Shown piece by piece: positions 8,390-59,870 of a DNA stretch of 64,000 nt. This DNA is from Methanobacteriota archaeon (lineage in GTDB: Archaea > Thermoplasmatota > Thermoplasmata > SG8-5 > JACRNV01). Location of the stretch: assembly GCA_016214785.1 (NCBI GenBank), contig JACRNV010000028.1, positions 67,445 through 131,444 on the forward strand, written 5' to 3'. The notes below the pieces were generated by a model. It was given only the letters and a program-made list of their open reading frames with translations. It was not told where the DNA came from and made no database searches. The position numbers and the translations under genes were made by a program. Each line of letters starts with the position of its first letter. Within the stretch, counting starts at the first letter, position 1.

Positions 8390-8567
8390 TGCGGGAGAAG
8401 GGATTTGAACCCTTGGACCACTAAGGACTAGACCCTCAATCTAGCGCCGTTAGCCTGCGCCCGCAATTGCCTGTAGTCGGCTAACGGCTAAGTCGCGGAC
8501 ATCCGTCCGCTCCTAGCGCCGTTGACCGGCGATGCAGGCGCATTTGACCAGGCTTAGCTACCCCCGC
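8390..8567 (-). tRNA. class II tRNA (probably tRNA-Leu, anticodon GAG) interrupted by about 95-100 nt of intron sequence
   Basis: On the minus strand: acceptor stem GCGGGGG/CTCCCGC with discriminator A, T-arm AAGGG-TTCAAAT-CCCTT, long variable arm, candidate anticodon arm CTAGA-TTGAGGG-TCTAG; the two exon halves are about 100 nt apart; a T5 tract follows the 3' end. Confidence 0.6.
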
Positions 8568-8608
8568 ATGGGCTTGCCATATAACCGCTTCTCATTTATA
8601 AAATCGAC

Positions 8609-9445
8609 CTACTCCATCATCTCGCCGATGGAGTCGTGGAGCGCCGAGAACTCGCTCTCCAGGTGCCCGAGCGCGTACAGGAGCGCGTCCTTGGCCGCGA
8701 GCGAGCCGTCGGTCTCGAACTGGAATATGAACTTCGTCTCGTCCCCCTCGATCGTGATGGCCCCCTTCTCGCAGGCCTCGACGCAGGCCATGCAGAGGTT
8801 GCACGCCTCGAGGTTGACGACCTGAGCCTTCCCTTCTTTCACAGCAATGACCTTCTTCGGGCACGCGCTCGCGCAGTCCTTGGCCCCCTCGCATTTCGCC
8901 TTGCTCACTTTTATCGTCGGGTAGAGCCTGTACCCCGAGCCATGGGTGACCTGCCACTTGGCATGGTCGCGCCCCCTGCCGAGCTGGGCCGTGGCATAGA
9001 TGAGTATGGCCTCGTCCTCGGTGAGCTTGGTGAGCGGTATCAGCTTGTCCACTGGGGAGAGCTTCGAGTCCCCGAGCGGCTCCAGGTCGCCGGAGTATAC
9101 GACGCACGGCCCCTTCTTGTTGAGCGAGAACATGATGGTGCACGTCGGGCAGCCCTCGCCGCCGCAGGCGCATTCCTTCCTGAACTTGTAGAGGCTCAGG
9201 TCCGTCGGTATCGGCACGAGCCCGAGCCTGTGCGCGAGCATCTCGTCGAAGAGCGGCCCGGTGCTCTCGAACGACTTGCCGTTCTCGTCGCTGATGGATC
9301 CCATGTGGAACTCGACGGTCTCGATGGCCATCTTCGGTATCTCGGCCATGAGCACCCTGCGCAGGGCGTTCATGAACGTGACGCTCGCGCCCGACATCAC
9401 GAAGCGCGCGTTGTTGCCCTCGACCTTCATATCCTCTATCTTCAT
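8609..9445 (-). CDS. rpoD: DNA-directed RNA polymerase subunit D (Rpo3) with 4Fe-4S ferredoxin-like insertion
   Basis: 278 aa; RpoD dimerisation-domain pattern plus cysteine clusters (CACGGEGCPTC; CEGAKDCASACP; CNLCMACVEAC); conserved position after rps11. Confidence 0.9.
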   Translation of the reverse strand: MKIEDMKVEGNNARFVMSGASVTFMNALRRVLMAEIPKMAIETVEFHMGSISDENGKSFESTGPLFDEMLAHRLGLVPIPTDLSLYKFRKECACGGEGCPTCTIMFSLNKKGPCVVYSGDLEPLGDSKLSPVDKLIPLTKLTEDEAILIYATAQLGRGRDHAKWQVTHGSGYRLYPTIKVSKAKCEGAKDCASACPKKVIAVKEGKAQVVNLEACNLCMACVEACEKGAITIEGDETKFIFQFETDGSLAAKDALLYALGHLESEFSALHDSIGEMME

Positions 9446-9840: not shown

Positions 9841-10467
9841 TCAGGCCCCGCCTTCAGTCTTTTCCGCGGGGGCGGGTTCTGCCTTCGCCTCCGGCTTCGG
9901 TGCCGGCGGCAATGGAGCCTCGCCCTCGGGGGTCAACGACTCTTCTCTCGGCCTCGCAGGGTGCAGCTCGTTCGCTATCGGCGACCTCGCGTTGTAGGAT
10001 ATCTGGTCTTCCTCTTCCTTTTTCACGAGGTAGCTCGGGATAGTCACCTTCCTGCTCCCTACCGAGATGTGACCGTGAACGATGAATTGACGGGCCTGGT
10101 TCGGCGTGTAGCTGAGCCCCTTTATGTACGCAAGGGTCTGCAGCCTTCGGGACAGGACTCCCTCGATATTCAGCGCGAGGACGTCGTCCAGTGTCGACTG
10201 CTCCGGCGTCAGCAGGCCGGCCCTTGTCAGCCTGTCTATGAGTTCCTTCATCTCCTTCGTGGCCTGGGGGTCGCCTATGCGCACGCGCGCCTGCAGCGTC
10301 CTGGCCCTCTCCCTGAAGTGCCTCAAAAGGGACTGGGCCTTCCAAATCTCCTTCTTGTTCTTCAGGCCGTACGTGGCGACGAGCTCGTTCTCCTGCTTGA
10401 TCCTCTCGCCCTCCCAGGGGTGGGAGGGCGTGTCATACTTCCTTCTGCAAAATTTAGGGTCTCCCAT
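9841..10467 (-). CDS. rps4: 30S ribosomal protein S4 (uS4) with P/A/E/K-rich C-terminal tail
   Basis: N-terminal [12 protein letters not shown] motif, S4 RNA-binding domain; low-complexity C-terminal extension. Confidence 0.9.
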
Positions 10468-10479
10468 TTATCAACCGTC

Positions 10480-11088
10480 CTAAGTCTTTTCACCGCCTTC
10501 CCCTTCGGCCGGCTTCTTCAGCTGGGTGCGTATGACCCCTAGGGTCAGGCCCGTCCTTCCGTTCGAGCGGGTGCGCTGCCCGCGGACCTTCTGGCCCTGC
10601 TCGTGCCTGATGCCCTTGTAGCAGCGTATCATCTTCATCCTGTTGATGTCGTCCCTGCGCGTTATCTCGACCTGCGGGCCGAGGATGTGGAAGGAGTCGC
10701 CGGTCTCGAAGTCGTCCTGCCTGTTGACCATCCACTCCGGCAGGGTCTCGGAGAGCCCGCCCAGGACCTTCTCGGCCTGCTCTATCTGGGCGTCGGTGAT
10801 CTTCCCTATCTTCTCGTGCCTCGGGAAGTTGATGTCCCTGATAATGACGTCGGCGATCCTGTTCCCCACGCCCTTGATCCCGGTGAGCGCGACGATGGCG
10901 GGCTTGTTCCCGTCCAGGTCCGCGCCCGCGAGCCTCACGATGTACTTGAAGTCCGCGTCCATCTTCTTGACCGGCTTGGGGGCTGCGCTCTTCTCGGGCG
11001 CCTTGCCCTTCTCGCCCTTGTCCTTCTTCTCGTGCTTTTCGGGCTTGTCGGACTTCTCGGGTTTCTGTGTTTTTTCGGGTTCTGCCAT
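10480..11088 (-). CDS. rps13: 30S ribosomal protein S13 (uS13) with K/E-rich N-terminal extension
   Basis: FKYIVRLAGADLDGNKPAIVALTGIKGVGNRIA matches uS13; start set at the ATG 11088-11086 (MAEPEK...), upstream in-frame residues are unlikely to be coding. Confidence 0.85.
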   Translation of the reverse strand: MAEPEKTQKPEKSDKPEKHEKKDKGEKGKAPEKSAAPKPVKKMDADFKYIVRLAGADLDGNKPAIVALTGIKGVGNRIADVIIRDINFPRHEKIGKITDAQIEQAEKVLGGLSETLPEWMVNRQDDFETGDSFHILGPQVEITRRDDINRMKMIRCYKGIRHEQGQKVRGQRTRSNGRTGLTLGVIRTQLKKPAEGEGGEKT

Positions 11089-11279
11089 CGTAATCCTCCA
11101 GGCTCTGCCGTGGGGGAAGTCCCAAAAGGGATGCCCATATATAAAGAATACTACAACTGGTACTGTTGCGTTGAAGGGTGTTGCGTTGCATCTGGCAGGG
11201 AGGTGTTGCAACGCGGGTGATAATTATTAATATTACGCCGAACTTCGCATAAGGTTTATATCTACAATGACCATTAGGT

Positions 11280-11804
11280 ATGAGTGTTGATAATTTGGAC
11301 GGCGATATAAATACTATACTTACAATATTCAGTCTGGCTCTAAGTATCATCGCACTGACAATCATTTTACACGAGAAATGGGCCTGGAAGCATCGATTTA
11401 CGGTTCAATATAGACCCGACCCACAAGAAGTAGTACGTTGGCCCCAATCATCAGATTACTGTATCGATGTAGAATTTAGGTGTGTGAAAAGTAATGCCGT
11501 TGTTTATCGTATTTGGCAACAGAGGGGATGGTTTATTGGAGGAGCCCAACTAAGCGTTTTAGAATCGAAAACGAAAGAGCCTATTCAAATTGGAGAAAAT
11601 GATTATCATTTTTTCCTTGTGCAAGAAAATGTACCCAAGATAATTACACTCGTTTTTAGAAAGAGTGACACTCGCACCGAAGGAACGGTGGGATTCCAAA
11701 TTGAAACTTCAGATGGAATATTTAAAAAGGAATTCAACCTTATTTGGGTGCCCGATAAGGTTGAACCTAATGAAAAAAGAATTCAAAAATGTCAATTTAA
11801 CTAA
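11280..11804 (+). CDS. hypothetical protein in low-GC patch (N-terminal TM helix)
   Basis: 174-aa ORF inside a clearly AT-richer segment (about 11220-11880) between the ribosomal/RNAP operon and rfcL; no recognisable motifs. Confidence 0.4.
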   Translation: MSVDNLDGDINTILTIFSLALSIIALTIILHEKWAWKHRFTVQYRPDPQEVVRWPQSSDYCIDVEFRCVKSNAVVYRIWQQRGWFIGGAQLSVLESKTKEPIQIGENDYHFFLVQENVPKIITLVFRKSDTRTEGTVGFQIETSDGIFKKEFNLIWVPDKVEPNEKRIQKCQFN

Positions 11805-11921
11805 GCGCCCCCGAACTGCCTTTGGTTCGCTATCAATTCAACCATTCCAGCCCAGCGGTTCTATGACAGTGTGGTAGCGCCATGATCCCGGCAAAATCGG
11901 CAGTGCAAATCCTTTTACCCA

Positions 11922-13310
11922 TTGAGTCAGATACGAGCGCCGATGGACGCAGACTGGACGGAGAAGTACAGGCCGCGCGCCCTGAAGGACATCGTCGGCA
12001 ACGCCTCCGCGCTCGAGAGGCTGAGGCGCTGGGGCGAGAGCTGGTCCAACGGCGCCCCGGAAAAGCGCGGCGTCATTCTAGCGGGCCCACCTGGCGTCGG
12101 AAAGACATCGGCCGCGCATGCTCTCGCCTTCGAGTTCGGGTGGGAGGTCATAGAGCTCAACGCCTCAGACCAGCGCAACGCCGGGGCGATCAAGTCTATC
12201 GCCCACAGGGGCGCCATCTTCGAGGGCTTCTCGCACACTGGGGAGTTCAGGCGTGCCAGGGACGGCGGCCGGAAGCTCATCATCCTCGACGAGGCTGACA
12301 ACATCTTCGGCAGGGAGGACGCCGGGGGGGCGCGGGCCATCGTGCAGATGCTCAGGGAGACGATGCAGCCCGTGATCCTGATCGCCAACGACTACCAGAA
12401 GCTGAAGCAGAAGTCCGGCGAGATTGTGTCCTCGTGCATCACGCTGTACTTCGATTTGCCAAGCGAGTTCCAGGTTTCAAGGCTGCTCTCCGACATCGCT
12501 GGCAAGGAGGGGATGAAGGCCACGGAGGGCTTCTTCGGCATGCTCGCCTCGCAGTGCGGCGGCGACGTGCGCTCGGCGGTCAACGACCTGCAATCATTCA
12601 GCAAGGGCGGTAAGAACGTATTGGAAGAGAAGGACATTGCCTCCATCGGTTACAGGGACGTGCAGATTGAGCCCGAGATTTTCGTGCGCAACCTCTTCGC
12701 CGCAAGGAACATGGGCGAGGCCAGGAGGGCGTACCGCGAGTTCGACGGCACGCCGGACGAGGCGATGCTGTGGCTCGACGGCAACATGACGGCTGGGATG
12801 TCGGGCGCCGAAGACCTCTCGAAGGGATACGCGATGCTCTCCTCCGCTGACCTTTTCCTGGGGAGGGCGAACCGCGCCAAGATTTACTCGCTCTGGCCGT
12901 ACGCCATAGACATGATGACCTGCGGCATAGCCGTCTCGAGGAAGAGCCGGGCTGTAGGCGCGGAGTTCAAGCTGCCCTTCTGGCTCATCATGATGTCGCG
13001 GTCCAAGGCCTCGCGCGGGGTGCGAAACGGGCTATGCATGAAGCTCGCAAGGTACACCCACACGTCCTCGTCGGCCATCGCCTCGCAGGACCTCGCATAC
13101 TATTCCAGGATGCTCGAGGACGACCAGGAGCTCAGGGGCCACATGGCTGCGGCGCTCTACCTCACAGAGGCCGAGGTCGGCTACCTCCTGCGCGAGCGCA
13201 CCGACTCGGAGCGCGTGGCGCAGGTCATGGCCGAGGTGCGGGCGCTCGAGGAGAAGGGGCGCAAGGGCACAGGCGCGCTCCAGGTACAGGGCGGTCCGGG
13301 CGCAGGGTGA
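11922..13310 (+). CDS. rfcL: replication factor C large subunit
   Basis: AAA+ Walker A GPPGVGKTS, Walker B ILDEAD, sensor motifs; archaeal RfcL length; may start at the ATG at 11943. Confidence 0.85.
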   Translation: MSQIRAPMDADWTEKYRPRALKDIVGNASALERLRRWGESWSNGAPEKRGVILAGPPGVGKTSAAHALAFEFGWEVIELNASDQRNAGAIKSIAHRGAIFEGFSHTGEFRRARDGGRKLIILDEADNIFGREDAGGARAIVQMLRETMQPVILIANDYQKLKQKSGEIVSSCITLYFDLPSEFQVSRLLSDIAGKEGMKATEGFFGMLASQCGGDVRSAVNDLQSFSKGGKNVLEEKDIASIGYRDVQIEPEIFVRNLFAARNMGEARRAYREFDGTPDEAMLWLDGNMTAGMSGAEDLSKGYAMLSSADLFLGRANRAKIYSLWPYAIDMMTCGIAVSRKSRAVGAEFKLPFWLIMMSRSKASRGVRNGLCMKLARYTHTSSSAIASQDLAYYSRMLEDDQELRGHMAAALYLTEAEVGYLLRERTDSERVAQVMAEVRALEEKGRKGTGALQVQGGPGAG

Positions 13311-14254
13311 TGGCAATGCCTGTCAACGACGAGCTCAGGGCCATCCTCGAGAAGCAGCAGTACCGCGTCGTGGGCGGCCATTCAGGCGTGAAGCTGTGCC
13401 ACTGGCTCGGGCAGAAGATGCTCCACGGGCGCGCGTGCTACAAGGAGCAGTTCTACGGCATCAGATCGCACAGGTGCCTGCAGATGACGCCCGCGCTGAA
13501 CAACTGCACGCAATCATGTCTGTTCTGCTGGAGGTTCCAGGGCTTCTCGGAGCGCGACCTGGCCGAGTGCGACGAGCCCGCAGATATCCTAGACGGCGCG
13601 ATTAAAGCGCAAAAAAAGCTCATCACCGGGTACAAAGGGGACCCGCGCTGCCCGAGGGAGATGTGGAAGGAAGCGAACGAGCCGAACCAGGTCGCGATCT
13701 CCCTTGCGGGAGAGCCGACGCTGTACGAGAAGCTCGGCGGTTTCATTGCAGAGTGCCACGATCGCGGGATGACGACCTTCGTCGTCACGAACGGGACATG
13801 CCCGGAAGCGCTCGAGAGGCTCGACCCGCTGCCGACGCAGCTCTATGTGACCGTGGCCGCGCCTGACGAAGCAACCTTCAAGAAGCTCTGCGTTCCGGTC
13901 GTCCCGAAGGCCTGGGCGCGCCTGCAGAAGTCGATAGATTTGTTCCCGTCCCTGGACACCAGGCGCGTGGTACGCCACACCCTTGTGAAAGGCTGGAACC
14001 TCGGGCGCGAGGGGGAGTACGCGGCCATCGACAGGCGCGCCGAGCCGCACTTCATCGAACCCAAGGGTTACGTCTTCGTGGGATACTCGCGCGAGCGCAT
14101 GGCCATCGCCAACATGCCGTCGCAGGACGAGGTGATGGCCTTTTCCGGCAAGCTCGCGGAGACGCTCGGCTTCCAGGTCGCTGGCGAGAAGCGCGACAGC
14201 AGGGTGTGCGTGCTGGCTTCGGGCAGCGCCCCCCTGAAGATTGGGGAGGCCTGA
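13310..14254 (+). CDS. taw1: tRNA wybutosine-synthesizing radical SAM enzyme TYW1/Taw1
   Basis: MAMPVNDELRAILEKQQYRVVGGHSGVKLCHW... matches the archaeal Taw1 N-terminus; radical SAM cysteine cluster (CTQSCLFC); ATG overlaps the rfcL stop (GTGATGG). Confidence 0.85.
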   Translation: MAMPVNDELRAILEKQQYRVVGGHSGVKLCHWLGQKMLHGRACYKEQFYGIRSHRCLQMTPALNNCTQSCLFCWRFQGFSERDLAECDEPADILDGAIKAQKKLITGYKGDPRCPREMWKEANEPNQVAISLAGEPTLYEKLGGFIAECHDRGMTTFVVTNGTCPEALERLDPLPTQLYVTVAAPDEATFKKLCVPVVPKAWARLQKSIDLFPSLDTRRVVRHTLVKGWNLGREGEYAAIDRRAEPHFIEPKGYVFVGYSRERMAIANMPSQDEVMAFSGKLAETLGFQVAGEKRDSRVCVLASGSAPLKIGEA

Positions 14255-14804: not shown

Positions 14805-14891
14805 AAAAATATATATTTCTCCTTTACATCTAATACATGTGATTCACATGTGAAAGAGGGGTTTAAATCCGCGGAAGGCCATTTTCGTGGC

Positions 14892-17800
14892 ATGACTCGA
14901 AAAAGCAGCCGCAGGGTGGGCCCGTTCACGAAAACATTCGCAGTCCTGGCGGTCATCGGCGCGATCATGGCCTCGGGGATTATCGCCTACAACGCCGACG
15001 AGCTTTACCTCGCCGGCAAGGGGAACGCGCTCGCCTACCTATCTTCAAGGATTGTCGCGGGCTCGAGGGCCACGGTCCTTGTGGCCACGAGCGACACGTC
15101 TGGCCGTCCGATATCTACCGACTTCAGGGTCGATGTCGTATCATCGGACGGCGCTAGGATAGTGGTCAATGGGAAGACCGGCGCGGACGGATGGGGCGAA
15201 GCGGCTTTCGATTCGCCCAGCGCGCCTGGCGACGCCAATGTATATATCAACAGCTCGATGGGCACCGTCGAGAAGTGCGTGACCATCGACGATACAATCA
15301 GGGTCCTCCTCGCCACCGACAAGCCGATATACCAGCCGGGACAGGTCGTGCGCATCCGCGTGGCGGCGTTCGAAGGGGACTCTCCGCACCCCTCGGGGCG
15401 CAACTGCACGTTCGAGGTGCGCTCCCCCTACGGCGACGCGATCTTCAGGAAGACCGTGGCGCTGGACGAGTTCGGAATCGGCTCCCTGGACTACCCGCTC
15501 GGCTACGTGCTGCCCTTCGGGAGCTACAAGATCAACGTCACGATAGGCTCGAGGGTGGAGTCCTCCGTGTTCGTCGTCAAGAACTACGTCCTCCCCATGT
15601 TCGCAATCCAGCTCCTTGGGATCAAGGACTGGTACACGGTCGGCGATTCGATATCCGGCGCCGTCTCCGCCGCGTACACGTTCGGGAAGCAGGTTCCCGG
15701 GTACGCCGAGGTGACGGCCAAGGCCTACGTGGGCATATGGTCCGAGGTGGGACGGGCGAGCGGCAGCCTCGTCAACGGCTCGTACTCGTTTCACCTGCCG
15801 AGCGTCCAGTATGCCGCTGGGGTATTGCTGAACGGCGGGAACGGCTACATCGAGATCAACAGCACCGTCACGGACACGAGCGGGCATTCCGAGAAGCGCA
15901 GCACGATTGTTCCGCTGGCTAGCGGGGCACTCTCGGTCAACGTTCTGGCCGAGAGCAATATGGTGGGCGAGCGCTCGAGCTACCTCTTCCTCGTGAGGAC
16001 GCCGGACGGGAAGCCGGTCGGCGGGGCGAACGTCAGCGTCACCATCGGCCATCTCGGCCCGGAGGCGTACAAGACGGACGGGCGCGGCGTTGCCAAGATC
16101 GAGTTCACATATCACGGCGAGGCCGCGATGTACTACTCAGTCAACAACGGCGGCACGAGCGCCTCGGGGACGATTGCCCTTGGCGCCAGGTCGTACGGCC
16201 TGAAGGTCATCCCCGACAAGAGGGGGTACCGGCTGGGCGAGCAGATGAAGTTCGACGTCGTTTACAGCGGGTCATCCTACACTTCCACCCTCTATTACGA
16301 GGTGATCGCGCGCGATTTCGTGCTCAGCTCGGGGAGGGTCGCGCTGTCCAGCGGGCGCGGCCAGATTGCCATCGCCGCGAGCCAGTCGATGTCCCCCGCG
16401 GCAGAGGTGCGCGTGTACAAGATTCAGACGAACCTCAGCGTGATATCCGATTCGACGATCGTCGCGGTCGGCGGCGCCGAGTGCCTCGACGTGCGGATAT
16501 CCGCCGACAAGGGTGAGTACAAGCCGCGCGACGCCGTCCGCCTGACTTTCAACGTCTCGAAGGACGGCAGCCCGGAGATCGCCGCCGTAGGCGTCTCGGG
16601 GGTCGATTCAGCCGTTTATGAACTCGCCGGGCGCATGACCGGTTTCGAGTCGCTCTTCTACGACCTCGAGTCCGACTTCCTCCAGCCGAGGTGGCAGATA
16701 TGCAACTACGCGTACGGCGAGGGCGCGGACCCGGGAATCGACCCGGGCAACCGGACCGTCGTCAACGTCTCCTCCAGCAAGGGGCTGTCGCTCACAGGTA
16801 TGTCGGTCGACCACCTCGCGAAGGCCGCCCAGGCCAGGAACGGCGCGGTCGAGATGTTCAACAACGCCATCCTCGTCCTCGCGCTGGTAGGCGCGTTCAT
16901 AGGGATAGTCGCCCTTGCGAGGTACAAGGGGCCCAAGGCCATAATCGCCGTCGTTCTAATCGTGGGGATTGGTACCTCGGGGCTCTCCATCCTTTACGTG
17001 ATGACGAGCGGCTACATGAGCGGCGGAGGGGGCTCGCAGATGATGGGCATCGATTCGAGCCAGTCCGGCGGCGGGAACGATGGTTCGAACTCTATGCCCG
17101 CCCCGGCAACGGGCATTGGGTTGCCTACATTTTCGTTGGAAGATACATCAACAGGCAGGATGGATGTCGGGACACAACTGCAAATCGCCCCGCCGCCCGT
17201 CACGCGCCAGTACTTCCCCGAGACGTGGATTTGGGTCCCCTCCCTTGTCACTGGCCGGGACGGGTCGGCCCACCTGGACGTCGAGGCGCCCGACTCCATC
17301 ACGAAGTGGGAGATCTCCGCCATCGCGACGACGAAGGACGGCTCCGTCGGGACGGCGCAGGGCAACCTAACCGTATTCCAGGAGTTCTTCGTCGAGCCAG
17401 ACATCCCGGTCAGCGCCGTGCGCGGGGACGAGTTCCCGCTGCGGGTCATGATATACAACTACCTCAGGACGCCCATGAACGTCTCCGTCGTCCTGCAGGG
17501 GGACAGCTGGTTCGACTCGCTCGACGGGGCTTCGCGCATGGTCGGCGTCTCCGGCGAGAGCGTCACGGGTGTCACGTTCCGCATAAGGCCGCAGCTAGTG
17601 GGTAGGCACAATGTCACCATCCTCGCGGGCAACATGCAGACGAGCGACATGGTGGTGCGCGAGATGAGGGTGGAGCCGAACGGGAAGCTCAGGACCGTAA
17701 CGCAGAACGCCGTGCTGGACGACAACGCCAGCGCGGCGCTCAGGGCCGACGCCTTCCAGAGCCTCGTGCCGGGGAGCCAGGGCGCGGTGCTGAGGATCGA

Positions 17801-19304
17801 GGCGGGCCTCCTCGCGCTCACGCTCGACGGCGCGGGGGACTTCATCCAGTTCGTCTCCGGCTGCGGCGAGCAGTCCACGTCGCGCCTCTCGGTGGACGTC
17901 GCGGCCTACAAGAACCTGCTCATGTCGGACGTCTCGGACGAGCAGATGGCCAAGTACGAAACCATCCTGACGCAGGGCATCCAGCACGAGCTCATCTACC
18001 TGATGGCCCCCGCGGACGCCCCCGGCAGGGCGATATGCTGGCACAACGGCGAGCCCGCCGACCTCTGGCTGACCGCGTGGGCGCTCTTCGCCTTCCAGGA
18101 CCTCCGGGACGCGGGGTTCGAGGTCGACACGGCGATAGTATCCGACATGCAGAGGTTCATCCTGAGCCAGCAGTCCTCGGACGGCCATTTCGGGTTCCCG
18201 AACGTCGGGCACTGGTCCATCAACGATGAATTGCAGGGCAAGGACCTTGCGGCCACGGCCTATATAGTCAGGGGTTTGCTTTACTCCGGCATGGTCGCCT
18301 CCAGCGAGGGCATATCGAGGGCCGTGTCCTACATGGCCTCGCACGCCTCGGAGGCTGGAAATTCGGCGTACACGACAGCACTCCTCCTCCTCTCCCTGAG
18401 GAGCGCGAACGCCGAGCCAGCGCTGCAGGAATCGCTCGCCGACAAGCTCTCCGCTATGAAGACCGTCGGCGCGAACGACTCCGCCTCTTGGACATCGACC
18501 TCGCGGTACACGGACACGACGACAGAGACCACGGCCTACGTCGCAATGGCCCTCAGCCGCTTCCCGGGCCACAGCGCAGAGTCGCAGCAGGCGCTCAAGC
18601 ACCTCCTCAAGAGCCGCAACCACGGCTATTTCGGCTCGACTCATGACACGGCCGTCGCCTTCCAGGCTCTCAACGTTTGCGGCTCCTTCGGTGACGTGCA
18701 GATGACTGTAGCGGTGACAGCGCCGGGCGGCTTTATTGCCAACGAGTCCTTCACGCAGGCCACGAGCGACATGCCGAGGGTCATCGACCTCGCCCCTTGG
18801 ATATCCGCGAGCGGCGTGGCCGTCGACCTGAAGAGCACGGGCGTGGGCAGGATAATGGCCCAGCTCATCTACGAGGAATACGTCCCGTGGTCGGAGATCG
18901 TGGCTGTCGAGGAAGCCATTGCCCTGACAGTCTCCTATGACGCCACAAACATACGAGTGGACGATATGGTCAGGTGCACCGTCAGCCTTGCCTACACCGG
19001 CCCGGCGCCGATGTTGAAGATGGTGCTCGTCGACCTGCGCGCGCCCGTCGGCTTCTCCTTCGTCGTCGAGGATTTCGACGGGCTGCTGGCCAACGGGACT
19101 ATAAACCAGTACGAGGTCTCGGACAGGCAGGCAGTCGTCTACATCGACGGCGTGCAGAGGGGCGTCCCCATGGGGTTCGTGTACAGGATAAGGGCCGACA
19201 TGCCCATCAGGGCCACGGTCCAGGGCGTCCGCGCCTACGACATGTATAACCCCGGCACAATCGCGACCCTACCGCCGGTGGAGTTCGTCTCCACCTCCCC
19301 CTAG
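14892..19304 (+). CDS. alpha-2-macroglobulin family thioester-containing protein with N-terminal membrane anchor and an internal hydrophobic hairpin at the bait-region position
   Basis: Thioester motif GCGEQ (FVSGCGEQSTS) about residue 1000; A2M/C3-family motif FPETWIW just after the putative bait region; N-terminal signal anchor; about 1470 aa, matching the size of bacterial A2M; GTG start at 14850 is an alternative. Confidence 0.7.
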   Translation: MTRKSSRRVGPFTKTFAVLAVIGAIMASGIIAYNADELYLAGKGNALAYLSSRIVAGSRATVLVATSDTSGRPISTDFRVDVVSSDGARIVVNGKTGADGWGEAAFDSPSAPGDANVYINSSMGTVEKCVTIDDTIRVLLATDKPIYQPGQVVRIRVAAFEGDSPHPSGRNCTFEVRSPYGDAIFRKTVALDEFGIGSLDYPLGYVLPFGSYKINVTIGSRVESSVFVVKNYVLPMFAIQLLGIKDWYTVGDSISGAVSAAYTFGKQVPGYAEVTAKAYVGIWSEVGRASGSLVNGSYSFHLPSVQYAAGVLLNGGNGYIEINSTVTDTSGHSEKRSTIVPLASGALSVNVLAESNMVGERSSYLFLVRTPDGKPVGGANVSVTIGHLGPEAYKTDGRGVAKIEFTYHGEAAMYYSVNNGGTSASGTIALGARSYGLKVIPDKRGYRLGEQMKFDVVYSGSSYTSTLYYEVIARDFVLSSGRVALSSGRGQIAIAASQSMSPAAEVRVYKIQTNLSVISDSTIVAVGGAECLDVRISADKGEYKPRDAVRLTFNVSKDGSPEIAAVGVSGVDSAVYELAGRMTGFESLFYDLESDFLQPRWQICNYAYGEGADPGIDPGNRTVVNVSSSKGLSLTGMSVDHLAKAAQARNGAVEMFNNAILVLALVGAFIGIVALARYKGPKAIIAVVLIVGIGTSGLSILYVMTSGYMSGGGGSQMMGIDSSQSGGGNDGSNSMPAPATGIGLPTFSLEDTSTGRMDVGTQLQIAPPPVTRQYFPETWIWVPSLVTGRDGSAHLDVEAPDSITKWEISAIATTKDGSVGTAQGNLTVFQEFFVEPDIPVSAVRGDEFPLRVMIYNYLRTPMNVSVVLQGDSWFDSLDGASRMVGVSGESVTGVTFRIRPQLVGRHNVTILAGNMQTSDMVVREMRVEPNGKLRTVTQNAVLDDNASAALRADAFQSLVPGSQGAVLRIEAGLLALTLDGAGDFIQFVSGCGEQSTSRLSVDVAAYKNLLMSDVSDEQMAKYETILTQGIQHELIYLMAPADAPGRAICWHNGEPADLWLTAWALFAFQDLRDAGFEVDTAIVSDMQRFILSQQSSDGHFGFPNVGHWSINDELQGKDLAATAYIVRGLLYSGMVASSEGISRAVSYMASHASEAGNSAYTTALLLLSLRSANAEPALQESLADKLSAMKTVGANDSASWTSTSRYTDTTTETTAYVAMALSRFPGHSAESQQALKHLLKSRNHGYFGSTHDTAVAFQALNVCGSFGDVQMTVAVTAPGGFIANESFTQATSDMPRVIDLAPWISASGVAVDLKSTGVGRIMAQLIYEEYVPWSEIVAVEEAIALTVSYDATNIRVDDMVRCTVSLAYTGPAPMLKMVLVDLRAPVGFSFVVEDFDGLLANGTINQYEVSDRQAVVYIDGVQRGVPMGFVYRIRADMPIRATVQGVRAYDMYNPGTIATLPPVEFVSTSP

Positions 19305-19341
19305 AAAGGTATTAAAGAGATGAAGGCAATGAGATGACAGG

Positions 19342-21036
19342 ATGACAAGGAAGAGAAGCGCCGCGACATTGAAGGAGCGCATCCTGCTTCATCTCTCGGA
19401 AAACATGCGCTATGCGGAATCGGCGGAAATCCCCGAGCGCCTCGCGCAGCACGGCATCTCGCGCTCGCTCGACTCCCCCAGGAGCCACATCGCCATCGCC
19501 CTGGGCGGGCTCGTCGAATCGGGCCTCGTGGACTACAGGCTCGCGAGGGTGCGCGGCCAGAAGCGCAAGATGAAGGCCTACCTGCTCACGCCCGAGGGCG
19601 TCGCCGAGGCGAACGGCCTGCGCGAGCACTTCCTCTGCAAGCATGTCAGCACGGGCGAGCGGACCGCCACTGTCGCGGAGCTGGCCGAGAGGGAGCGCGG
19701 AGTCCCACTCGCAATCCTGCTCGGGTGCGTCGATCCAGACTTCAGGATGCACAGGGACTGGATGCCCGCGCAGCTTGCGGCGGCGGGCGAGGCGCCCGCC
19801 CCTCCGGTCGCCCAGGAGACACCACCCGCGCCCGCAGCAATCGAAGTCGTTGCGAAGCCAGCCCCTGTCAAAGCTGAGATCTCTCCGATTGGCGAGTCCG
19901 TCCAGGCAGCATCCGCCGGGATTCCGACAGCGTGCCCTCGCTGCGGCGACGCCGAGCCCCCCGTCCGGAACACATACTACGGTCCGGTCTTCAGGCTCGA
20001 TACGTTGGCGTGCGCGCGCTGCGGCTTCGAGTACGCCGTGTCGAAGGAGGAGTACAAAGCGCCAGCGATGCCGCAGATTTACGCACCCGGAGACTGGAAG
20101 TGGGTGGTCGGGATCCCCCTGTCGATAGGCGCTTTCCTGTTCTTCGCGCCCTTCTACCTCCTACTCTTCGAGTTCGGCGGGTTCAGCCTCTTCGGCGGCC
20201 TGCTGTGCGCCCTGATACCCCTCGGGATGCTCATCGGGGGCGGGTTCACGGTCCTGGCGTTCCTGAGGGCGCGGCATTTCCCCGGGCTGAGCGCCTGGTG
20301 CGCCCTCCTCTACGCATCCATAGGCCTGCCTTTCATCGCCCTGTTCTTCGGCATCTCCGGGCGCGAGATCGGGCGCGAGCACCTGCTGACTGCGGGCGCG
20401 GCCGTCGCGGCTTTTTTCATCGTTCTGCTCATGACGTGCAAGGACCGGCGGTTCTTCGGCCGCCTCCTGGCCTTCGCGTCGGGGGCGACGGTGTCGGCGG
20501 CCTGCGCCCTCGCCACGTTCGGGGGCGCGGCGGTGCGCATGCCCTCCGCCGTGGGGCTCCTGATGGTCTCGCTATCGATGTCATTCCTGGCCGCGGCCTT
20601 CTTCAGGGCGGGCATGGCCCGCGAGGACGCGAAGGAGCTGCTGCTCTTCATGCTCGGGACGGGGATAATCGCCTCCTCGATATCCCTGTGGCTTCGCGAT
20701 TCGGCCAGCGCAGCGTCGTTCGTCGCCATGGCCGCGTGGGCGGCCCTCGGCCTCCTCCTGTGCGCGACGTCTCTCTCGCGTACGCGGGCCAGGGTCTTGC
20801 GCGACGCGCTGTGGCGCGCCCTCCCCCTCGCCGTCGGGGCGATATTCGTCGGGGCCGGCGCAATCATGCTGTACTCGGGGCTCTACGCCGAGAGCGCCAT
20901 AGAGTTCCTGGTCGGCGTGCCTCTCTCGGCCTACGGGCTGAGGGAGAGCCTGCCGAACCTGATGCCGGTGAGCCTCGGCATCTCCGCCTACGCCCTCGTC
21001 CTGGAGTTCGTTACGTACGCCGCGATATTCTGGTAA
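19342..21036 (+). CDS. membrane-embedded transcriptional regulator: N-terminal winged-helix domain, zinc ribbon, 8-10 TM helices
   Basis: N-terminal 110 aa resemble a MarR/ArsR-type wHTH; P/A-rich linker; CPRCG...CARCG ribbon; C-terminal 330 aa polytopic hydrophobic. Confidence 0.6.
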   Translation: MTRKRSAATLKERILLHLSENMRYAESAEIPERLAQHGISRSLDSPRSHIAIALGGLVESGLVDYRLARVRGQKRKMKAYLLTPEGVAEANGLREHFLCKHVSTGERTATVAELAERERGVPLAILLGCVDPDFRMHRDWMPAQLAAAGEAPAPPVAQETPPAPAAIEVVAKPAPVKAEISPIGESVQAASAGIPTACPRCGDAEPPVRNTYYGPVFRLDTLACARCGFEYAVSKEEYKAPAMPQIYAPGDWKWVVGIPLSIGAFLFFAPFYLLLFEFGGFSLFGGLLCALIPLGMLIGGGFTVLAFLRARHFPGLSAWCALLYASIGLPFIALFFGISGREIGREHLLTAGAAVAAFFIVLLMTCKDRRFFGRLLAFASGATVSAACALATFGGAAVRMPSAVGLLMVSLSMSFLAAAFFRAGMAREDAKELLLFMLGTGIIASSISLWLRDSASAASFVAMAAWAALGLLLCATSLSRTRARVLRDALWRALPLAVGAIFVGAGAIMLYSGLYAESAIEFLVGVPLSAYGLRESLPNLMPVSLGISAYALVLEFVTYAAIFW

Positions 21037-21067: not shown

Positions 21068-21565
21068 CTAGCCCGTCACATATGCGAAGGTGGCGATCGA
21101 TGGGGCCCCTGACGCCGTGATGTCCTTCCTCTGGAACACCACAATATCCCCCTGGACGATCTCCCCCGTCCAGGGGTGCGAAGCGTCGAGGCTCTGGAAT
21201 TCCGAGGCGTTGTAGGAACCCTTTTCCGGGAGCCACAGGTGGACGTTCGCCAGGTACCCCGCGCTCGCCCTCCTCGAACCGCACGTGATTTGCACCAATC
21301 CCATGCTGATGTTGAGGTGGACGGGCTTGCCGCCAATCTGCTCGGGCACGGCGTAGTTGCCACCTGCCCCGACCGTCAGGTTCGCTTTCGTCTCGCCTCC
21401 CAGCGACGAGAACGAGTCTATCCAGTTCGCCAGCGAGTCGGCGGCCTGCTCGGCCTCCCGGTCGAGCGCGGCCTCGCGCTGCACGTAGAAGAACCCGGAT
21501 ATGGACGAGACGATGACCAGCACTGCAATGCTTATGGCGACTTTGGACGCGAGCCAGTCGATCAC
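21068..21565 (-). CDS. hypothetical exported protein (N-terminal TM/signal anchor)
   Basis: 165 aa; hydrophobic N-terminus VAISIAVLVIVSSISGFFYV; sequons; no family assignment. Confidence 0.4.
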   Translation of the reverse strand: MIDWLASKVAISIAVLVIVSSISGFFYVQREAALDREAEQAADSLANWIDSFSSLGGETKANLTVGAGGNYAVPEQIGGKPVHLNISMGLVQITCGSRRASAGYLANVHLWLPEKGSYNASEFQSLDASHPWTGEIVQGDIVVFQRKDITASGAPSIATFAYVTG

Positions 21566-22026
21566 TGCCTCTTCACCTCGAGGAGCCGCTCCTCGGGCAT
21601 GTTCAAAATCTCCATAGCCAGGGAGCGCTCGGTCGCCCTGGACATCGTCTGCGCGATGTGGTCTGCGACCTCATTCCTCAGCGCCACCCAGACCGCGCCA
21701 CTCTCGGACGTGAACTCGGCCTCGGGCTTCTTGGCGTTGATGACCCAGATGTTCCCCTTGCCGAGCGTGCAGGATGTGGAAACTTGTACTCCGTCGACGA
21801 TGCAGGATATCGGGGGCGCCGGACCTGCGAAGACGCGCGCCCTCAGCTTCCCCGCGCCGAGCGCCGTGCGCGCGGCCTGGCCCATGCGCCAGCCGACAGC
21901 CGCGAACGGGCCGAGGTGGCCGTGGAACTCCTCGAGCTTCCTCGCGATGTCATCGGGGGTCATGAACCCGAGAAAGTGGAGGAAAGATAAAACCGTTGGC
22001 ATTCGGTAATGGAGCGTCCCGAGCAT
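21562..22026 (-). CDS. FmdE (formylmethanofuran dehydrogenase subunit E)-like domain protein
   Basis: FHGHLGPFAAVGWRMG matches the FmdE-family FHGHxCPG-type motif; start may be the internal ATG at 21963. Confidence 0.65.
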   Translation of the reverse strand: MLGTLHYRMPTVLSFLHFLGFMTPDDIARKLEEFHGHLGPFAAVGWRMGQAARTALGAGKLRARVFAGPAPPISCIVDGVQVSTSCTLGKGNIWVINAKKPEAEFTSESGAVWVALRNEVADHIAQTMSRATERSLAMEILNMPEERLLEVKRQ

Positions 22027-22111: not shown

Positions 22112-22909
22112 TTACCTTATTGCAGTCTCTTTGGAGCGTGCGTCCCATTCCGCGGCCGCCAGTTTCACTTCCCTTAGCAATCCGTCGAACTTCGGAACCC
22201 TGGTCATCAACGGCGACAGGTCGCGCTTCCAGACCGCCTCGCCCACGGGGTAATCCTCGACTATTCCGGCCAGGGAACCGGCATCGGCGGCTCCGACCTC
22301 TGCCAGCTTCTTGTTGACGGCGGCGAGGTCGGTGGACGCCCCCTTCTTCGCGAGCCACCATATGTCGTAGAGGTCGCGCGGCTTCTTCCTCTGCCTGACC
22401 GCCCTGAACTTCTCGGCCAGCATCTCGGACAGGCTGACGCTCTGGAGCGAGAAGGTCCCCGCGTCCGGGTAGTCCGTGACGACCGTCAGCCATTCCAGCG
22501 GGGCGGCGGGCCGGAGCTTCGATATCTCCACGTCCATCGTGCCGCGGGAAGCCCGCTCGCCGGTGAACAGCGGCCCCTCGTAGGACAGCCGGCACATGTA
22601 CGCGAAGGGGCGCTCCTTCCATTCCACGACCTCTGCCGGAATGCCCGTGCGCTCCAGCCCGGAGACGGCCTGTTCCACGGCCCCCCGCACGTCCCCGGCA
22701 GTCGCCTTCCCGACGGCCGCGAAGTCCAGGTCCTCGGAGTATCTATTGAGGCCGTGCGCCTTCCTGAGGCATGTGCCGCCCTTGAAGGCCAGCAGGTCCG
22801 TCCTCGCGAATATCCACTTCAGCGCCAGGCTCTCGATGTAATCGAGCTCGAGTACGTGGAGAGGGAGCCCCTCGCCGTGAATGTCCCTCAGCTGCCTCCT
22901 CGTTATCAT
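22112..22909 (-). CDS. AbiEii/AbiGii-family nucleotidyltransferase toxin (type IV TA system)
   Basis: LAFKGGTCL...SEDLDF nucleotidyltransferase core typical of DUF1814/AbiEii; ATG overlaps the stop of the upstream AbiEi gene (ATGA). Confidence 0.75.
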   Translation of the reverse strand: MITRRQLRDIHGEGLPLHVLELDYIESLALKWIFARTDLLAFKGGTCLRKAHGLNRYSEDLDFAAVGKATAGDVRGAVEQAVSGLERTGIPAEVVEWKERPFAYMCRLSYEGPLFTGERASRGTMDVEISKLRPAAPLEWLTVVTDYPDAGTFSLQSVSLSEMLAEKFRAVRQRKKPRDLYDIWWLAKKGASTDLAAVNKKLAEVGAADAGSLAGIVEDYPVGEAVWKRDLSPLMTRVPKFDGLLREVKLAAAEWDARSKETAIR

Positions 22910-23652
22910 TCTCTCACCACGTTCGCGTAGACCTTCCACTTCCTCACGGTCTCGAAACTCTCAGATGGGGCCGACGGGTCGAGCCAGACGTAGCTGCGCG
23001 AGGCGTGCCTCTGCAGCCTCCGCTCGTCGAAGCTTATGCCCGCGTCGTCCAAGAGATGGCCCAGCCTGCTGCAGACCGTCGGGCTGCCGGCTCGCAGGGC
23101 GTAATCGACCAGCTTTCCCGCGCCCAGCTCCGCCTTCTCGACCGCGTCCCTTAGCTCGCCGTAGCCGCCCGAGTACGATGGGAAGGCGAGGCAATCCAGC
23201 ACCAGCTTCTCCGGCTCGGCCACCACCACGCGCCCGTCCGCCCTGTACCCGAAGAACATCCGCGGCCTAACACGGACGTACCTGACCCTCCGGTCCTGGA
23301 GATCGAGCCCTCTCCGCGCCCTCGCCGTCACCAGGTAGACCTCCGCCGGGACCTGGGTGGTGTAGCCGTAGTGGTGCAGGCCGGACCATAGGCTGAGGTA
23401 CGACGGCTCGTGCACGCGCGGCGCGAGCTCGTAGACGTCCATCTCCGAATAGAACCGCGCGATGACGTACTTGCCGCGCTCAATCCGCTTGATGGCACCC
23501 TTCGACGCCAACCTGCTGAGCGCCTTGCGAGCGACGAGCCGCTCCACGCGCAGGACCTTCGAAGCCTCGAGGAGGCCGAAGACGGCTATGCCCCGGCGCC
23601 CCATCTCCTCGACCAGCTCCGTCTCCCGCGCCGACATCGATGGATAATTCAT
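22906..23652 (-). CDS. AbiEi-like antitoxin/transcriptional regulator (type IV TA system)
   Basis: N-terminal wHTH region plus C-terminal AbiEi_4-like domain; genetic linkage and 4-nt overlap with the AbiEii gene. Confidence 0.7.
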   Translation of the reverse strand: MNYPSMSARETELVEEMGRRGIAVFGLLEASKVLRVERLVARKALSRLASKGAIKRIERGKYVIARFYSEMDVYELAPRVHEPSYLSLWSGLHHYGYTTQVPAEVYLVTARARRGLDLQDRRVRYVRVRPRMFFGYRADGRVVVAEPEKLVLDCLAFPSYSGGYGELRDAVEKAELGAGKLVDYALRAGSPTVCSRLGHLLDDAGISFDERRLQRHASRSYVWLDPSAPSESFETVRKWKVYANVVRE

Positions 23653-37928: not shown

Positions 37929-38086
37929 GGTTTAGCATATGTCCTTTCCCATATATAAATACATCTGTACAGCGTTTTGTAAGTGGCTATTTTGCATATT
38001 TTATTCTTTCCATTGCCCGGCCTCGGCCTTTTTTTACTAGTTGTGTGGATGGCTTCTTTCAACTATCGCCATCCCTGAGGCATTCT

Positions 38087-38869
38087 TCAGAAAATTTGTG
38101 ACCATGCCCGGAGAGCCATTGACGCAAGTCCTGCTGGCAATGCAGGGACGTTCTTCATCACAACCGCGCCCAAGCCTATGAACGCATTGTTGCCTACGAC
38201 GACGTAGTCCCTTATCGAGCTGTTCGGGGAAATCCAGACGCCATCACCTATCTTCGCACTCCCGGCGATTATGGTTCCCGCAGTGATGATGCAGTTCTTT
38301 CCGATTGTGACATTGTGCCCGATGTGGCAGTAGTGGTCTATCTTCGTGCACCGCCCGACCCTTGTGTTCCCGAGTGTCCCCCTGTCTATGTTCGTGAACG
38401 GAAAGACCTCCACGTAGTCACCGAGAACCACGCCCCCGTAGTGCGGGAAATTCTCTAACATCCCCTTCTCGTTTTCAATATGCCCGAGTCCCTCATATCC
38501 GATCAGGCAATATGGATAGACAATCACATTCCTCCCTATAGTCACATTGTCGTTTATCAATACGTTCGAATGAATTATCGTGTTGGCCTTTATTTTACAT
38601 TTCCCAATCGAGCAGTTGGGCCCGATATATACGCTCGGGTGTATGTCCGCTCCGTCACTGACCACCGAGGTGGGATGAATACCTCCCCTCTTCACCTCCC
38701 GCGGGAAGCATCTCTTTAATATTCTTAAAAAGGCCAACTGGGGGTTCTCCACGACTACGAATGCCTTTTTAGTAGCGTTTGGGCTTTTAACGCCCGTCTT
38801 TTTATTAACCAGTATCACCGAAGCCTTTGAATTGTTGACGATTTTTGTCGAGTTTTGTATCCTTTCCAT
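38087..38869 (-). CDS. left-handed beta-helix (hexapeptide-repeat) sugar N-acyltransferase, LpxD/PglD-like
   Basis: Tandem hexapeptide repeats (IGPNCSIG, VTIGRNVIV, VTIGKNCIITAGTIIAG, IGDGVWISPNSSI) after an N-terminal nucleotide-sugar-binding-like region. Confidence 0.7.
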   Translation of the reverse strand: MERIQNSTKIVNNSKASVILVNKKTGVKSPNATKKAFVVVENPQLAFLRILKRCFPREVKRGGIHPTSVVSDGADIHPSVYIGPNCSIGKCKIKANTIIHSNVLINDNVTIGRNVIVYPYCLIGYEGLGHIENEKGMLENFPHYGGVVLGDYVEVFPFTNIDRGTLGNTRVGRCTKIDHYCHIGHNVTIGKNCIITAGTIIAGSAKIGDGVWISPNSSIRDYVVVGNNAFIGLGAVVMKNVPALPAGLASMALRAWSQIF

Positions 38870-39000
38870 AGCGCAGAAAGAGATGGCCCCGCTCTTTCCC
38901 TCCCATATCGTAGAAGGGAACGAAAAGGTTGTGTCAGGGCTGCCTATTATCTCGTATCCCTTAATCTTCAGCTCCGCCAGGACTTTTCCTATCCGGTATT

Positions 39001-39783: not shown

Positions 39784-39812
39784 TTCTACAGCCTCCTATG
39801 GACTCAGGATAT

Positions 39813-59630: not shown

Positions 59631-59870
59631 ATGGTGATGTTGAGGTGCCCTATAATGTCAAAAAAAGATTGGTTATGGACAATAATACTTGCATTATGCT
59701 TGGTCGGGGTTGGAGGATTCCTACCACTTGCCATTGGAGGTGGATATAACCTACTTTTTTCTACAAGTAACAACATATCTTTTGATATTATTGTTTTTCT
59801 AATAGTTGTGGTAGTATGCATAATATTAACGATTGTTTCATTGTACTGCTTGCGAAAAAATTGGAGATGA
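59631..59870 (+). CDS. small membrane protein (2 TM) in low-GC island
   Basis: 79-aa hydrophobic ORF upstream of the Rhs-CT gene; codon usage AT-rich relative to the host. Confidence 0.35.
   Translation: MVMLRCPIMSKKDWLWTIILALCLVGVGGFLPLAIGGGYNLLFSTSNNISFDIIVFLIVVVVCIILTIVSLYCLRKNWR

Follow-up and report, generated by a model that had tools for sequence, protein, structure and literature searches.

In the textbook account, alpha-macroglobulins and complement proteins are soluble or tethered by lipid, and their key regulatory element, the bait or anaphylatoxin insert, figures in every description known to us as an exposed module outside the cell. CD109 is attached to the membrane by a glycosylphosphatidylinositol (GPI) anchor (PMC12927315). 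The bacterial protein ECAM is lipid-anchored, and bacterial alpha-2-macroglobulins (A2Ms) are believed to protect the cell from proteases (PMC4498604). For archaea, the passages on A2M homologs in Makarova et al., 2021 (PMC8416519) describe proteins of Halobacteria and Methanomicrobia with a signal peptide, macroglobulin (MG) and immunoglobulin (Ig) domains in variable organizations and a thioester domain (TED) with CxEQ, linked to arCOG14565 and arCOG02808 and discussed as possible immunity or conflict systems; the clade in Thermoplasmatota is not mentioned in the same passages, nor is a transmembrane (TM) hairpin at the bait position. The locus described here lies in a stretch of 64,000 nucleotides (nt) of contig JACRNV010000028.1, from a metagenome-assembled thermoplasmatote genome, and this whole stretch is referred to as the window. 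The locus comprises a gene for an A2M-like thioester protein, the bait slot of which appears to be occupied by a membrane-spanning helical hairpin, followed by a gene for a membrane-bound winged helix-turn-helix (wHTH) protein. That the hairpin-bearing product is a membrane-threaded, surface-displayed thioester protein of the A2M/CD109 type is well supported.

The hairpin in the bait slot

Judged by its sequence, the product is without doubt a complete member of the A2M/thioester-containing protein (TEP) family. Membership is secure because six Pfam domains exceed their gathering scores, namely MG2 (E-value 2.7e-14), MG3 (4e-06), A2M_BRD (6.9e-16), A2M (9.7e-26, whole profile 1-92), TED_complement and A2M_recep. 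No match to ANATO or NTR/C345C was found in the protein with Pfam. The initial annotation had recognized an A2M/complement-family protein from the motifs GCGEQ and FPETWIW and had proposed a check by A2M-family domain models; both motifs are present, significant matches surround them, and the assignment is upheld. In a phmmer search against Protein Data Bank (PDB) sequences, the nearest solved relatives are CD109 (7e-58) and human A2M (4e-50), and bacterial A2Ms do not appear among the matches at E<=1e-5. An AlphaFold2 (AF2) model was built for residues 271-1470 from a 53-sequence alignment (mean predicted local distance difference test score, pLDDT, 80.2). Foldseek comparison with the PDB places A2ML1, CD109, A2M, C5 and TEP1 on top, with a probability of 1.00 for A2ML1, CD109, A2M and C5, and the bacterial ECAM and SaA2M further down, at ranks 25-40. 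By its modeled fold, the archaeal protein is of the eukaryote-like type.

The bait region is the part of the chain that sets the protein apart. Residues 452-577 align with CD109 502-619, residues from 764 onward align with CD109 from 700 onward, and residue 770 aligns with human A2M 730, at TVRKYFPETWIW. Since these flanks align with CD109 and human A2M on either side, residues 578-763 constitute the bait-region slot, a segment of 186 residues that is the counterpart of CD109 620-699 and of the human A2M bait. The slot contains, in order, a pre-hairpin segment, TM1, a loop, TM2 and a linker of ~64 residues. The two hydrophobic runs, AILVLALVGAFIGIVALA and AIIAVVLIVGIGTSGLSILYVM, have Kyte-Doolittle 19-residue means of 2.57 and 2.45, are separated by RYKGPK and are followed by SGGGGSQMMGIDSSQSGGGNDGSNS. 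The placement of two hydrophobic stretches and a Gly/Ser-rich segment at the bait position, already proposed in the initial annotation, thus agrees with both the sequence scan and the alignments to CD109 and A2M. The features of the gene are as follows.

14892-19304, plus strand: gene for the A2M/TEP-family thioester protein, 1470 amino acids (aa), stop codon included
14934-14990, plus strand: N-terminal signal anchor, residues 15-33, from a Kyte-Doolittle scan; conserved in the clade
15303-16625, plus strand: MG2, MG3 and further MG domains through A2M_BRD, the bait-region domain (BRD) scaffold; Pfam matches, beta-sandwiches in the AF2 model
16863-17003, plus strand: predicted TM helical hairpin in the bait slot; TM1 residues 658-677, loop RYKGPK, TM2 residues 683-704
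17004-17195, plus strand: disordered, hypervariable Gly/Ser/Pro-rich linker, residues 705-768, candidate for the bait proper; pLDDT <50 in the AF2 model
17214-17234, plus strand: FPETWIW, residues 775-781, start of the A2M (PF00207) domain; aligns with the FPETWIW of CD109 and human A2M
17829-18671, plus strand: TED; Pfam TED_complement, 1.1e-23
19017-19265, plus strand: C-terminal A2M receptor-binding (MG8) domain; Pfam A2M_recep, 8.6e-07, 29.9 bits against a cut-off of 21.7

The thioester motif GCGEQ occupies residues 990-994 (nt 17859-17873) and is invariant across the clade. In the AF2 model, the hydrophobic runs form two long antiparallel helices (residues 635-677 and 681-705, pLDDT 54-71) with disordered flanks (~595-642 and 701-761, pLDDT <50), and confident beta-sandwich and TED domains are found outside the hairpin and its flanks. 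The segments are thus modeled as helices and not as the buried beta strands of an MG domain, the outcome that would have spoken against the initial annotation. Both runs are 18-25 residues long and free of charged or strongly polar residues. The loop between them measures 3-16 residues and is rich in Lys/Arg in 12 of 12 clade members (RYKGPK, RYKAAR, RYR, RRGR, RNRK, KYK and others), which fits the positive-inside rule for a cytoplasmic turn. The N-terminus, too, is basic ahead of its hydrophobic anchor. The number of inserted TM segments in relatives is most often even (2 or 6), and with an even number both halves of the protein would stay outside. The predicted topology is therefore that of a protein that threads the membrane at its bait slot.

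The initial annotation had left the choice between threading of the membrane and an exposed trap module. Were the helices to lie outside the membrane, they could catch proteases or insert into a target membrane, and their hydrophobicity taken alone would suit such a role. The combination of uncharged runs of 18-25 residues with a short Lys/Arg-rich loop in every clade member is, however, the signature of a membrane hairpin, and six such helices, as found in the slot of relatives, are implausible as solvent-exposed elements. Moreover, a comparison across the clade reveals that hydrophobicity is conserved in the hairpin helices while the sequence is not. Of the two options, threading is the one that stands, and an exposed hydrophobic trap is very improbable.

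The hairpin was found in all 12 full-length homologs at 31-57% identity. To this was added a species-level scan with one genome per species (GTDB), which yielded 79 loci with A2M homologs. Every assessable homolog of the Thermoplasmatota clade, that is every one with the region ahead of FPETW on the contig, has the hairpin, in ~45 species genomes; the clade as counted includes Thermoplasmata, Methanomassiliicoccales and one bin labeled Hydrothermarchaeota. The slots of the clade proteins contain 1-2 hydrophobic segments above threshold, and nearly all contain 2. Conversely, none of 20 FPETW/GCGEQ homologs from other lineages with the slot on the contig has a hairpin; these come from Methanosarcinales (Methanolobus, Methanococcoides, ANME-2), Altiarchaeota, Hadarchaeota, Halobacteriota, Sedimentisphaerales and Acidobacteriota. 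Recurrence in dozens of genomes indicates that the arrangement is not due to chance. It also bears on the concern, raised by the origin of the window in a metagenome-assembled genome, that a frameshift, misassembly or gene fusion had produced a chimeric open reading frame (ORF). The same uninterrupted architecture is present in ~45 independent species-level assemblies from different studies, closed chromosomes included, and refutes such an artefact, the probability of which is negligible.

A protein of 1783 aa from a Joint Genome Institute metagenome (P0007) aligns at 41% identity over its C-terminal half only and has no hairpin ahead of FPETW. In place of a hairpin, hydrophobic segments occur at 516-557 along with a Pro-rich stretch; the protein represents either a differing architecture or a chimeric gene model.

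The linker between TM2 and FPETW is kept at 57-76 aa within the clade and consists to 44-66% of G/S/T/P/A/Q/N. Its majority-residue fraction in the clade alignment is 0.27, against 0.50-0.64 for the folded domains. A segment of constant length and hypervariable sequence behaves as bait regions do and could serve as the bait; that a disordered, bait-like linker sits beside the membrane is well supported. These properties also bear on the possibility that the protein is a thioester adhesin or opsonin, which would bond covalently to a host, a partner cell, a virus or mineral-bound organic matter, or would tag invaders as insect TEPs and complement do, with the hairpin keeping the bonded complex on the membrane. 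The thioester and a full TEP/C3-like architecture are present, and immune-like or conflict roles are proposed in the passages on archaeal A2M homologs cited above (PMC8416519). Against this, the inhibitor branch has as its hallmark a bait position filled by a long disordered stretch of hypervariable sequence, and the closest solved relatives by sequence are the inhibitors CD109, A2M and A2ML1, not TEP1 or C3. In the clade, the residue that lines up with the hydroxyl-directing His of C3 seems to be Asn, Thr or Ser, a tentative assignment as the alignment is ambiguous by one residue. An adhesin or opsonin is therefore unlikely, and an inhibitor-like protein threaded through the membrane is the preferred reading.

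The plus-strand ORF extends from 14850 to 19304 and encodes 1484 aa when read from a GTG. The ATG at 14892, which is also the start in the NCBI gene model of the identical protein (P0001, 1470 aa), is by its sequence context almost certainly the true start, because a TATA-like box at 14862-14868 falls 3' of the GTG. The GTG at 14850 lies within the candidate operator and 5' of the TATA box and was rejected as a start. A basic stretch, MTRKSSRR, precedes the N-terminal anchor. The N-terminus, MTRKSSRRVGPFTKTFAVLAVIGAIMASGIIAYN, has no Cys and hence no lipobox, and is a signal anchor instead. The C-terminus (...PPVEFVSTSP) has no hydrophobic segment and hence no GPI-anchor signal.

The partner gene and the promoter palindrome

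The gene downstream of the A2M-like gene encodes a protein with three distinct parts, and two further elements precede the operon.

14823-14854, plus strand: candidate operator; ACATGT cores at 14835 and 14846, 11 base pairs (bp) apart
14862-14868, plus strand: TATA-like box TTTAAAT, ~27 nt upstream of the ATG
19342-21036, plus strand: gene for the membrane-bound regulator, 564 aa; 37 nt after the A2M stop codon, same strand
19369-19635, plus strand: wHTH domain, residues 10-98; AF2 model, with structure matches to MarR/PadR
19933-20022, plus strand: CPRC...CARC zinc ribbon, residues 198-227; AF2 three-stranded sheet 208-237
20095-21030, plus strand: polytopic membrane domain with 11 predicted helices, residues 252-563; no known family matched

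No Pfam or NCBIfam family scores above threshold in the partner, the sole match being a weak, sub-threshold MarR_EPS. The AF2 model (38-sequence alignment, pLDDT 82.5) has a winged helix followed by a small alpha/beta extension and a disordered Pro/Ala-rich tether (143-181). In structure comparison, the fold of the first domain resembles DNA-bound MarR and PadR structures, and by this model the domain is a winged helix. Ten or eleven hydrophobic helices can be counted in the sequence and eleven TM helices in the model. The initial description of this neighbor as a wHTH and zinc-ribbon protein with a polytopic membrane domain is borne out by the model, the CPRC...CARC motif and the 11 TM helices.

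In five genomic contexts that are otherwise unrelated, the A2M-like gene is directly followed on its own strand by a gene for a homolog of the partner. An alignment of these proteins has a well-conserved N-terminal domain and a weakly conserved polytopic domain, and of the 6 orthologs, 4 have the zinc ribbon. With hidden Markov models (HMMs) made from this alignment, 36 of the 48 hairpin-clade loci that have sufficient flanking sequence were found to carry the partner as the next gene downstream on the same strand, against 0 of ~24 non-hairpin loci. Adjacency is kept down to ~31% A2M identity, with all flanking genes changed. Co-occurrence of the two genes in related archaea, which the initial annotation had proposed to check, is thereby established amid unrelated flanks, and it is well supported that the A2M-like gene and the membrane-bound wHTH gene form a conserved two-gene operon. 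The halobacterial regulator arCOG02808, described as a soluble HTH protein of ~270 aa in the passages concerned (PMC8416519), was considered as an equivalent of the partner and rejected.

The wHTH domain alone is widespread; a single-sequence phmmer search returned 798 cluster representatives of many architectures, ~30 of them full-length. With the partner alignment as query, a word-indexed search recovered 4 proteins only and overlooked orthologs that were already known. Full-length relatives of the partner without an A2M gene occur at two loci (L011, 7001-8752; L012, 7001-8689), where they are divergent from genes for large family-less and PKD-repeat proteins; these large proteins were considered as A2Ms and rejected, as they are not A2M-like.

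Upstream of the A2M start in the window, CTTTACATCTAATACATGTGATTCACATGTGAAAG is followed by TTTAAAT. The position of the TATA-like box relative to the ATG implies a leaderless or near-leaderless transcript. The two ACATGT cores lie inside the palindromes ACATGTGATTCACATGT and TTCACATGTGAA, and a degenerate third copy, TTTACATCTAA, is also present. An exact search for TCACATGTGA found no other copy in the 64 kb window, and a relaxed search for the operator across the window gave fewer matches than chance, so that no regulon is evident in the window. Across the clade, the motif consists of an ACATGT core within TT(G/T)ACATGT(C/A)AA, often in 2-4 copies placed 8-30 bp apart, commonly 11 or 19. 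The upstream regions of 28 loci (4464 nt) contain 34 copies of ACATGT where 1.0 is expected from the density elsewhere in the same loci (0.22 per kb), an enrichment of 34-fold (Poisson P ~1e-39), with at least one copy in 23 of the 28 loci. The proximal copy ends 9-12 nt upstream of the TATA-like box, a spacing held in at least 20 of 24 loci, and the palindrome therefore abuts the transcription factor B recognition element (BRE). Upstream of non-hairpin homologs ACATGT is essentially absent (1 copy in 5400 nt).

A conserved promoter-proximal palindrome on the A2M operon is thus well supported. The wHTH protein encoded in the operon probably binds this palindrome and so autoregulates the module. 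The distribution of the motif with respect to the partner points in this direction, though not in every case. Four of the five loci without the motif also lack the partner (L019, L046, L048, L052), and a perfect ATTTACATGTAAAT lies ~70 nt upstream of the partner-family gene without an A2M neighbor at L012; partner-less loci L025 and L027 nonetheless carry the motif. An ACATGT at 19240, at the 3' end of the A2M gene, was rejected as a site, as it codes for a conserved YDMY motif.

At the hairpin locus L019, where the usual partner and the ACATGT motif are missing, a 186-aa ArsR-like HTH protein with 2 TM helices is encoded shortly downstream of the A2M-like gene on the opposite (minus) strand (8452-9009), and a different palindrome, GTTTGGTGGTCACCAAAC, is found upstream of 3980. 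The regulator may have been swapped at this locus.

The other neighbors of the module in the window that were scanned are an AAA/RFC-like gene, a radical S-adenosylmethionine (SAM) wyosine gene, FmdE, AbiE and phosphoenolpyruvate synthase. The initial annotation had remarked on the lack of a penicillin-binding protein (PBP) gene beside the A2M-like gene, and indeed none was found among the scanned neighboring ORFs or in the five related contexts. Downstream of the regulator, on the minus strand, a 164-aa family-less ORF and an FmdE-domain gene (21068-22023) are followed by a pair of AbiEii toxin (4.9e-32) and AbiEi antitoxin genes (22112-23649). The ORF/FmdE pair is likewise found after the operon of the closest relative (L001, 14040-14944) and not in more distant ones, and an AbiEii gene is again found beside the A2M operon of that relative, on the other side (L001, 6249-7010). 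The AAA/RFC-like ORF (11922-13310) overlaps the ORF for radical-SAM wyosine formation (Taw1-like, 13034-14254) by ~280 nt in a different frame; the Taw1-like ORF probably starts further downstream. Three stretches of low G+C (58001-62000, 0.445; 38001-40000, 0.51; 10001-12000, 0.53; window average ~0.60) may be islands of foreign DNA.

Possible roles in anchoring, trapping and sensing

Relatives outside the archaeal clade provide a second view of inserts in the bait slot. Of 105 distant, mostly bacterial matches, 30 have at least two TM segments in the slot, mostly 2 or ~6. These inserts lie past the BRD end (VDEAVF) and ahead of the FPET motif, and the thioester is retained as GCFEQ. The initial annotation had called membrane threading at the bait position unprecedented for A2M. 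This holds for the literature that was searched, and not for sequence databases, in view of these 30 proteins. A full-text literature search, with most subscription journals outside its reach, turned up neither a paper on TM helices within the bait region of an A2M nor one on A2M-type anti-sigma factors.

At least 7 of the 30 TM-insert proteins begin with a cytoplasmic N-terminal extension of 75-110 residues, which is seen in 0 of 75 insert-free ones (Fisher P ~9e-5, with kinship ignored). The zf-HC2 anti-sigma motif is detected in 4 of 9 such N-termini at E<0.001, 3 of them above the Pfam cut-off, and a gene for an extracytoplasmic function (ECF) sigma factor lies directly upstream in all three TM-insert loci examined. 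In these bacteria, the A2M body with its membrane insert would literally be the sensor domain of an anti-sigma factor, and anti-sigma factors with an A2M ectodomain are apparently an undescribed class. That an A2M class is wired to transcription is thus independently supported, because some of the bacterial TM-insert relatives are anti-sigma fusions. No zf-HC2 or other anti-sigma domain and no ECF sigma factor was detected among the proteins of the window with Pfam. The three proteins at the examined loci, P0091 (L010, 4256-9905), P0096 (L092, 2435-7917) and P0021 (L093, 1093-6847), have 2-6 TM helices in the slot; P0096 and P0021 have the zf-HC2 N-terminus.

The best explanation of the whole, which we hold to be about evenly poised between right and wrong, is a protease trap pinned to the membrane at the cell surface, with a dedicated autoregulator that is itself membrane-bound. 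The product of the first gene would be exposed on the exterior of the cytoplasmic membrane, held by its N-terminal anchor and by the bait-slot hairpin; the short basic loop of the latter would face the cytoplasm, and the two halves of the protein would lie outside. The segment from TM2 to FPETW would act in place of the bait and be cut by proteases arriving at the membrane. Cleavage would trigger the conformational change typical of the family, upon which the protease would be bound covalently to the GCGEQ thioester and so kept at the cell surface. By analogy with the closest relatives, protease trapping by the archaeal protein is probable. The wHTH factor encoded by the second gene most likely binds the TT(G/T)ACATGT(C/A)AA palindromes that abut the BRE/TATA elements and would thereby control expression of the module, and through its 11-helix membrane domain it may sense which state the A2M hairpin is in.

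The regulator may plausibly be coupled to the A2M protein, as the order of the genes, the operator they share and the anti-sigma analogs of bacteria suggest. The further step, that the hairpin transmits the cleavage event to the membrane domain of the regulator, is only a tentative proposal. Equally speculative is the generalization that A2Ms with a bait-slot insert are transmembrane proteolysis sensors, in which cleavage of the extracellular bait and the conformational snap that follows would be relayed by the membrane hairpin or the 6-TM bundle to different receivers, a polytopic wHTH protein acting on ACATGT operators in Thermoplasmatota and a fused anti-sigma domain releasing an ECF sigma factor in bacteria.

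The main rival to this explanation is that the hairpin is an anchor only. It would then be a second tether or would position the bait, the regulator would be an ordinary transcription factor specific to its operon that answers another cue, such as membrane or envelope stress, and the locus would encode a surface A2M of organisms without an outer membrane, and often without a wall, in which hairpin and regulator have no physical or signaling link. The absence of a downstream partner at 12 of 48 hairpin loci agrees with this, as do the bacterial relatives with a 6-TM insert and no adjacent regulator and the partner-family members without an A2M neighbor. Tethering has precedents in the family, in the GPI anchor of CD109 (PMC12927315) and the lipid anchor of ECAM (PMC4498604). 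Yet the N-terminal anchor already tethers the protein, and a second anchor in the bait slot needs a reason. Moreover, the two genes stay adjacent down to ~31% A2M identity though the flanking genes all change, and the bacterial anti-sigma N-termini are confined to the TM-insert class, which suggests that the insert matters in signaling. A pure anchor is possible, though we consider it doubtful.

Several observations weigh against a regulated trap as formulated above. AF2 confidence in the hairpin is only moderate (pLDDT 54-71), and the regulator of the window remains below the Pfam thresholds of every HTH family. An operator upstream of the BRE and abutting it fits an activator and a repressor alike. 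The hairpin does not depend on the regulator, as is evident from the 12 of 48 hairpin loci that have no partner downstream and from bacterial relatives without one; indeed, many bacterial TM-insert proteins have no regulator nearby (P0045 is an example), which indicates that the insert also has a regulator-independent role. Hairpin and partner co-occur inside one monophyletic clade, and their correlation therefore amounts essentially to one evolutionary event, not 36. Finally, the regulator family may serve surface-protein genes generally, since it also adjoins unrelated large surface proteins.

If sensing of this kind is real, proteolysis sensing would be a previously unrecognized signaling principle common to archaea and bacteria, built on the scaffold of animal A2M and complement. 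A bait slot with predicted TM helices is in any case present in a whole archaeal clade (at least 45 species-level genomes) and in many bacterial relatives, and A2M is tied genetically to transcription in two independent ways, through a membrane-bound wHTH protein and its candidate operator in archaea and through ECF/anti-sigma fusions in bacteria. Should the coupling hold, the locus offers a testable model of how wall-less or monoderm prokaryotes detect and neutralize external proteases. The operator provides an experimental handle on an uncharacterized family of archaeal membrane-bound regulators, and the occurrence of eukaryote-type (CD109/A2M-like) thioester proteins in Thermoplasmatota bears on the origin of the animal TEP/complement scaffold.

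Relation to known thioester proteins and membrane-bound regulators

Relative to the known superfamily, three features of this locus are, to our knowledge, new: the predicted membrane-embedded bait slot, the dedicated membrane-bound regulator and the conserved candidate operator. CD109 (PDB 8s3o, 9fx2) is similar in the order of its MG, BRD, TED and receptor-binding domains, in FPETWIW and GCGEQ and in being of a surface-tethered, monomeric type. It differs in its C-terminal GPI anchor and its soluble bait loop of ~80 residues, and is only ~19% identical to the archaeal protein, which has instead an N-terminal anchor and a two-helix membrane hairpin in a 186-residue slot. Human A2M and A2ML1 share the domain architecture, the thioester and a hypervariable flexible segment just N-terminal of FPETWIW. 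They are, however, soluble plasma or epithelial proteins, A2M being tetrameric, with no membrane segments and no known linked regulator gene. The bacterial A2Ms (Escherichia coli ECAM/YfaS and Salmonella SaA2M; PDB 5a42, 4u48) are likewise prokaryotic, monomeric, membrane-tethered and extracytoplasmic. In contrast to the archaeal protein, which has no lipobox and no adjacent PBP gene, they are lipoproteins of diderm bacteria encoded beside pbpC. Complement C3, C4 and C5 have the same fold and carry an all-helical insert, the anaphylatoxin, in the equivalent place, past MG6-beta/LNK and ahead of FPE(S/T)W. The anaphylatoxin is a disulfide-rich soluble bundle and C345C is present in these proteins, whereas the archaeal insert is predicted to be transmembrane and C345C is missing.

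The partner also has counterparts among described regulators. ToxR and CadC are membrane-bound one-component transcription factors of bacteria, and ArnR and ArnR1 of Sulfolobus are archaeal ones (PMC6396743). In all of these, as in the predicted architecture of the partner, the DNA-binding HTH domain lies in the cytoplasm on a membrane tether and governs the expression of surface-structure genes. ArnR/ArnR1 and ToxR/CadC have 1-2 TM helices with HAMP or periplasmic sensors, in contrast to the 11 TM helices and frequent zinc ribbon of the partner, and no homology to them is detectable beyond the generic wHTH. Pairs of ECF sigma and anti-sigma factors are the closest parallel in logic, as the bacterial TM-insert A2Ms would wire an extracytoplasmic A2M body to a transcription factor. 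The archaeal system differs in that a separate polytopic wHTH protein, and not a fused anti-sigma domain, would take this part.

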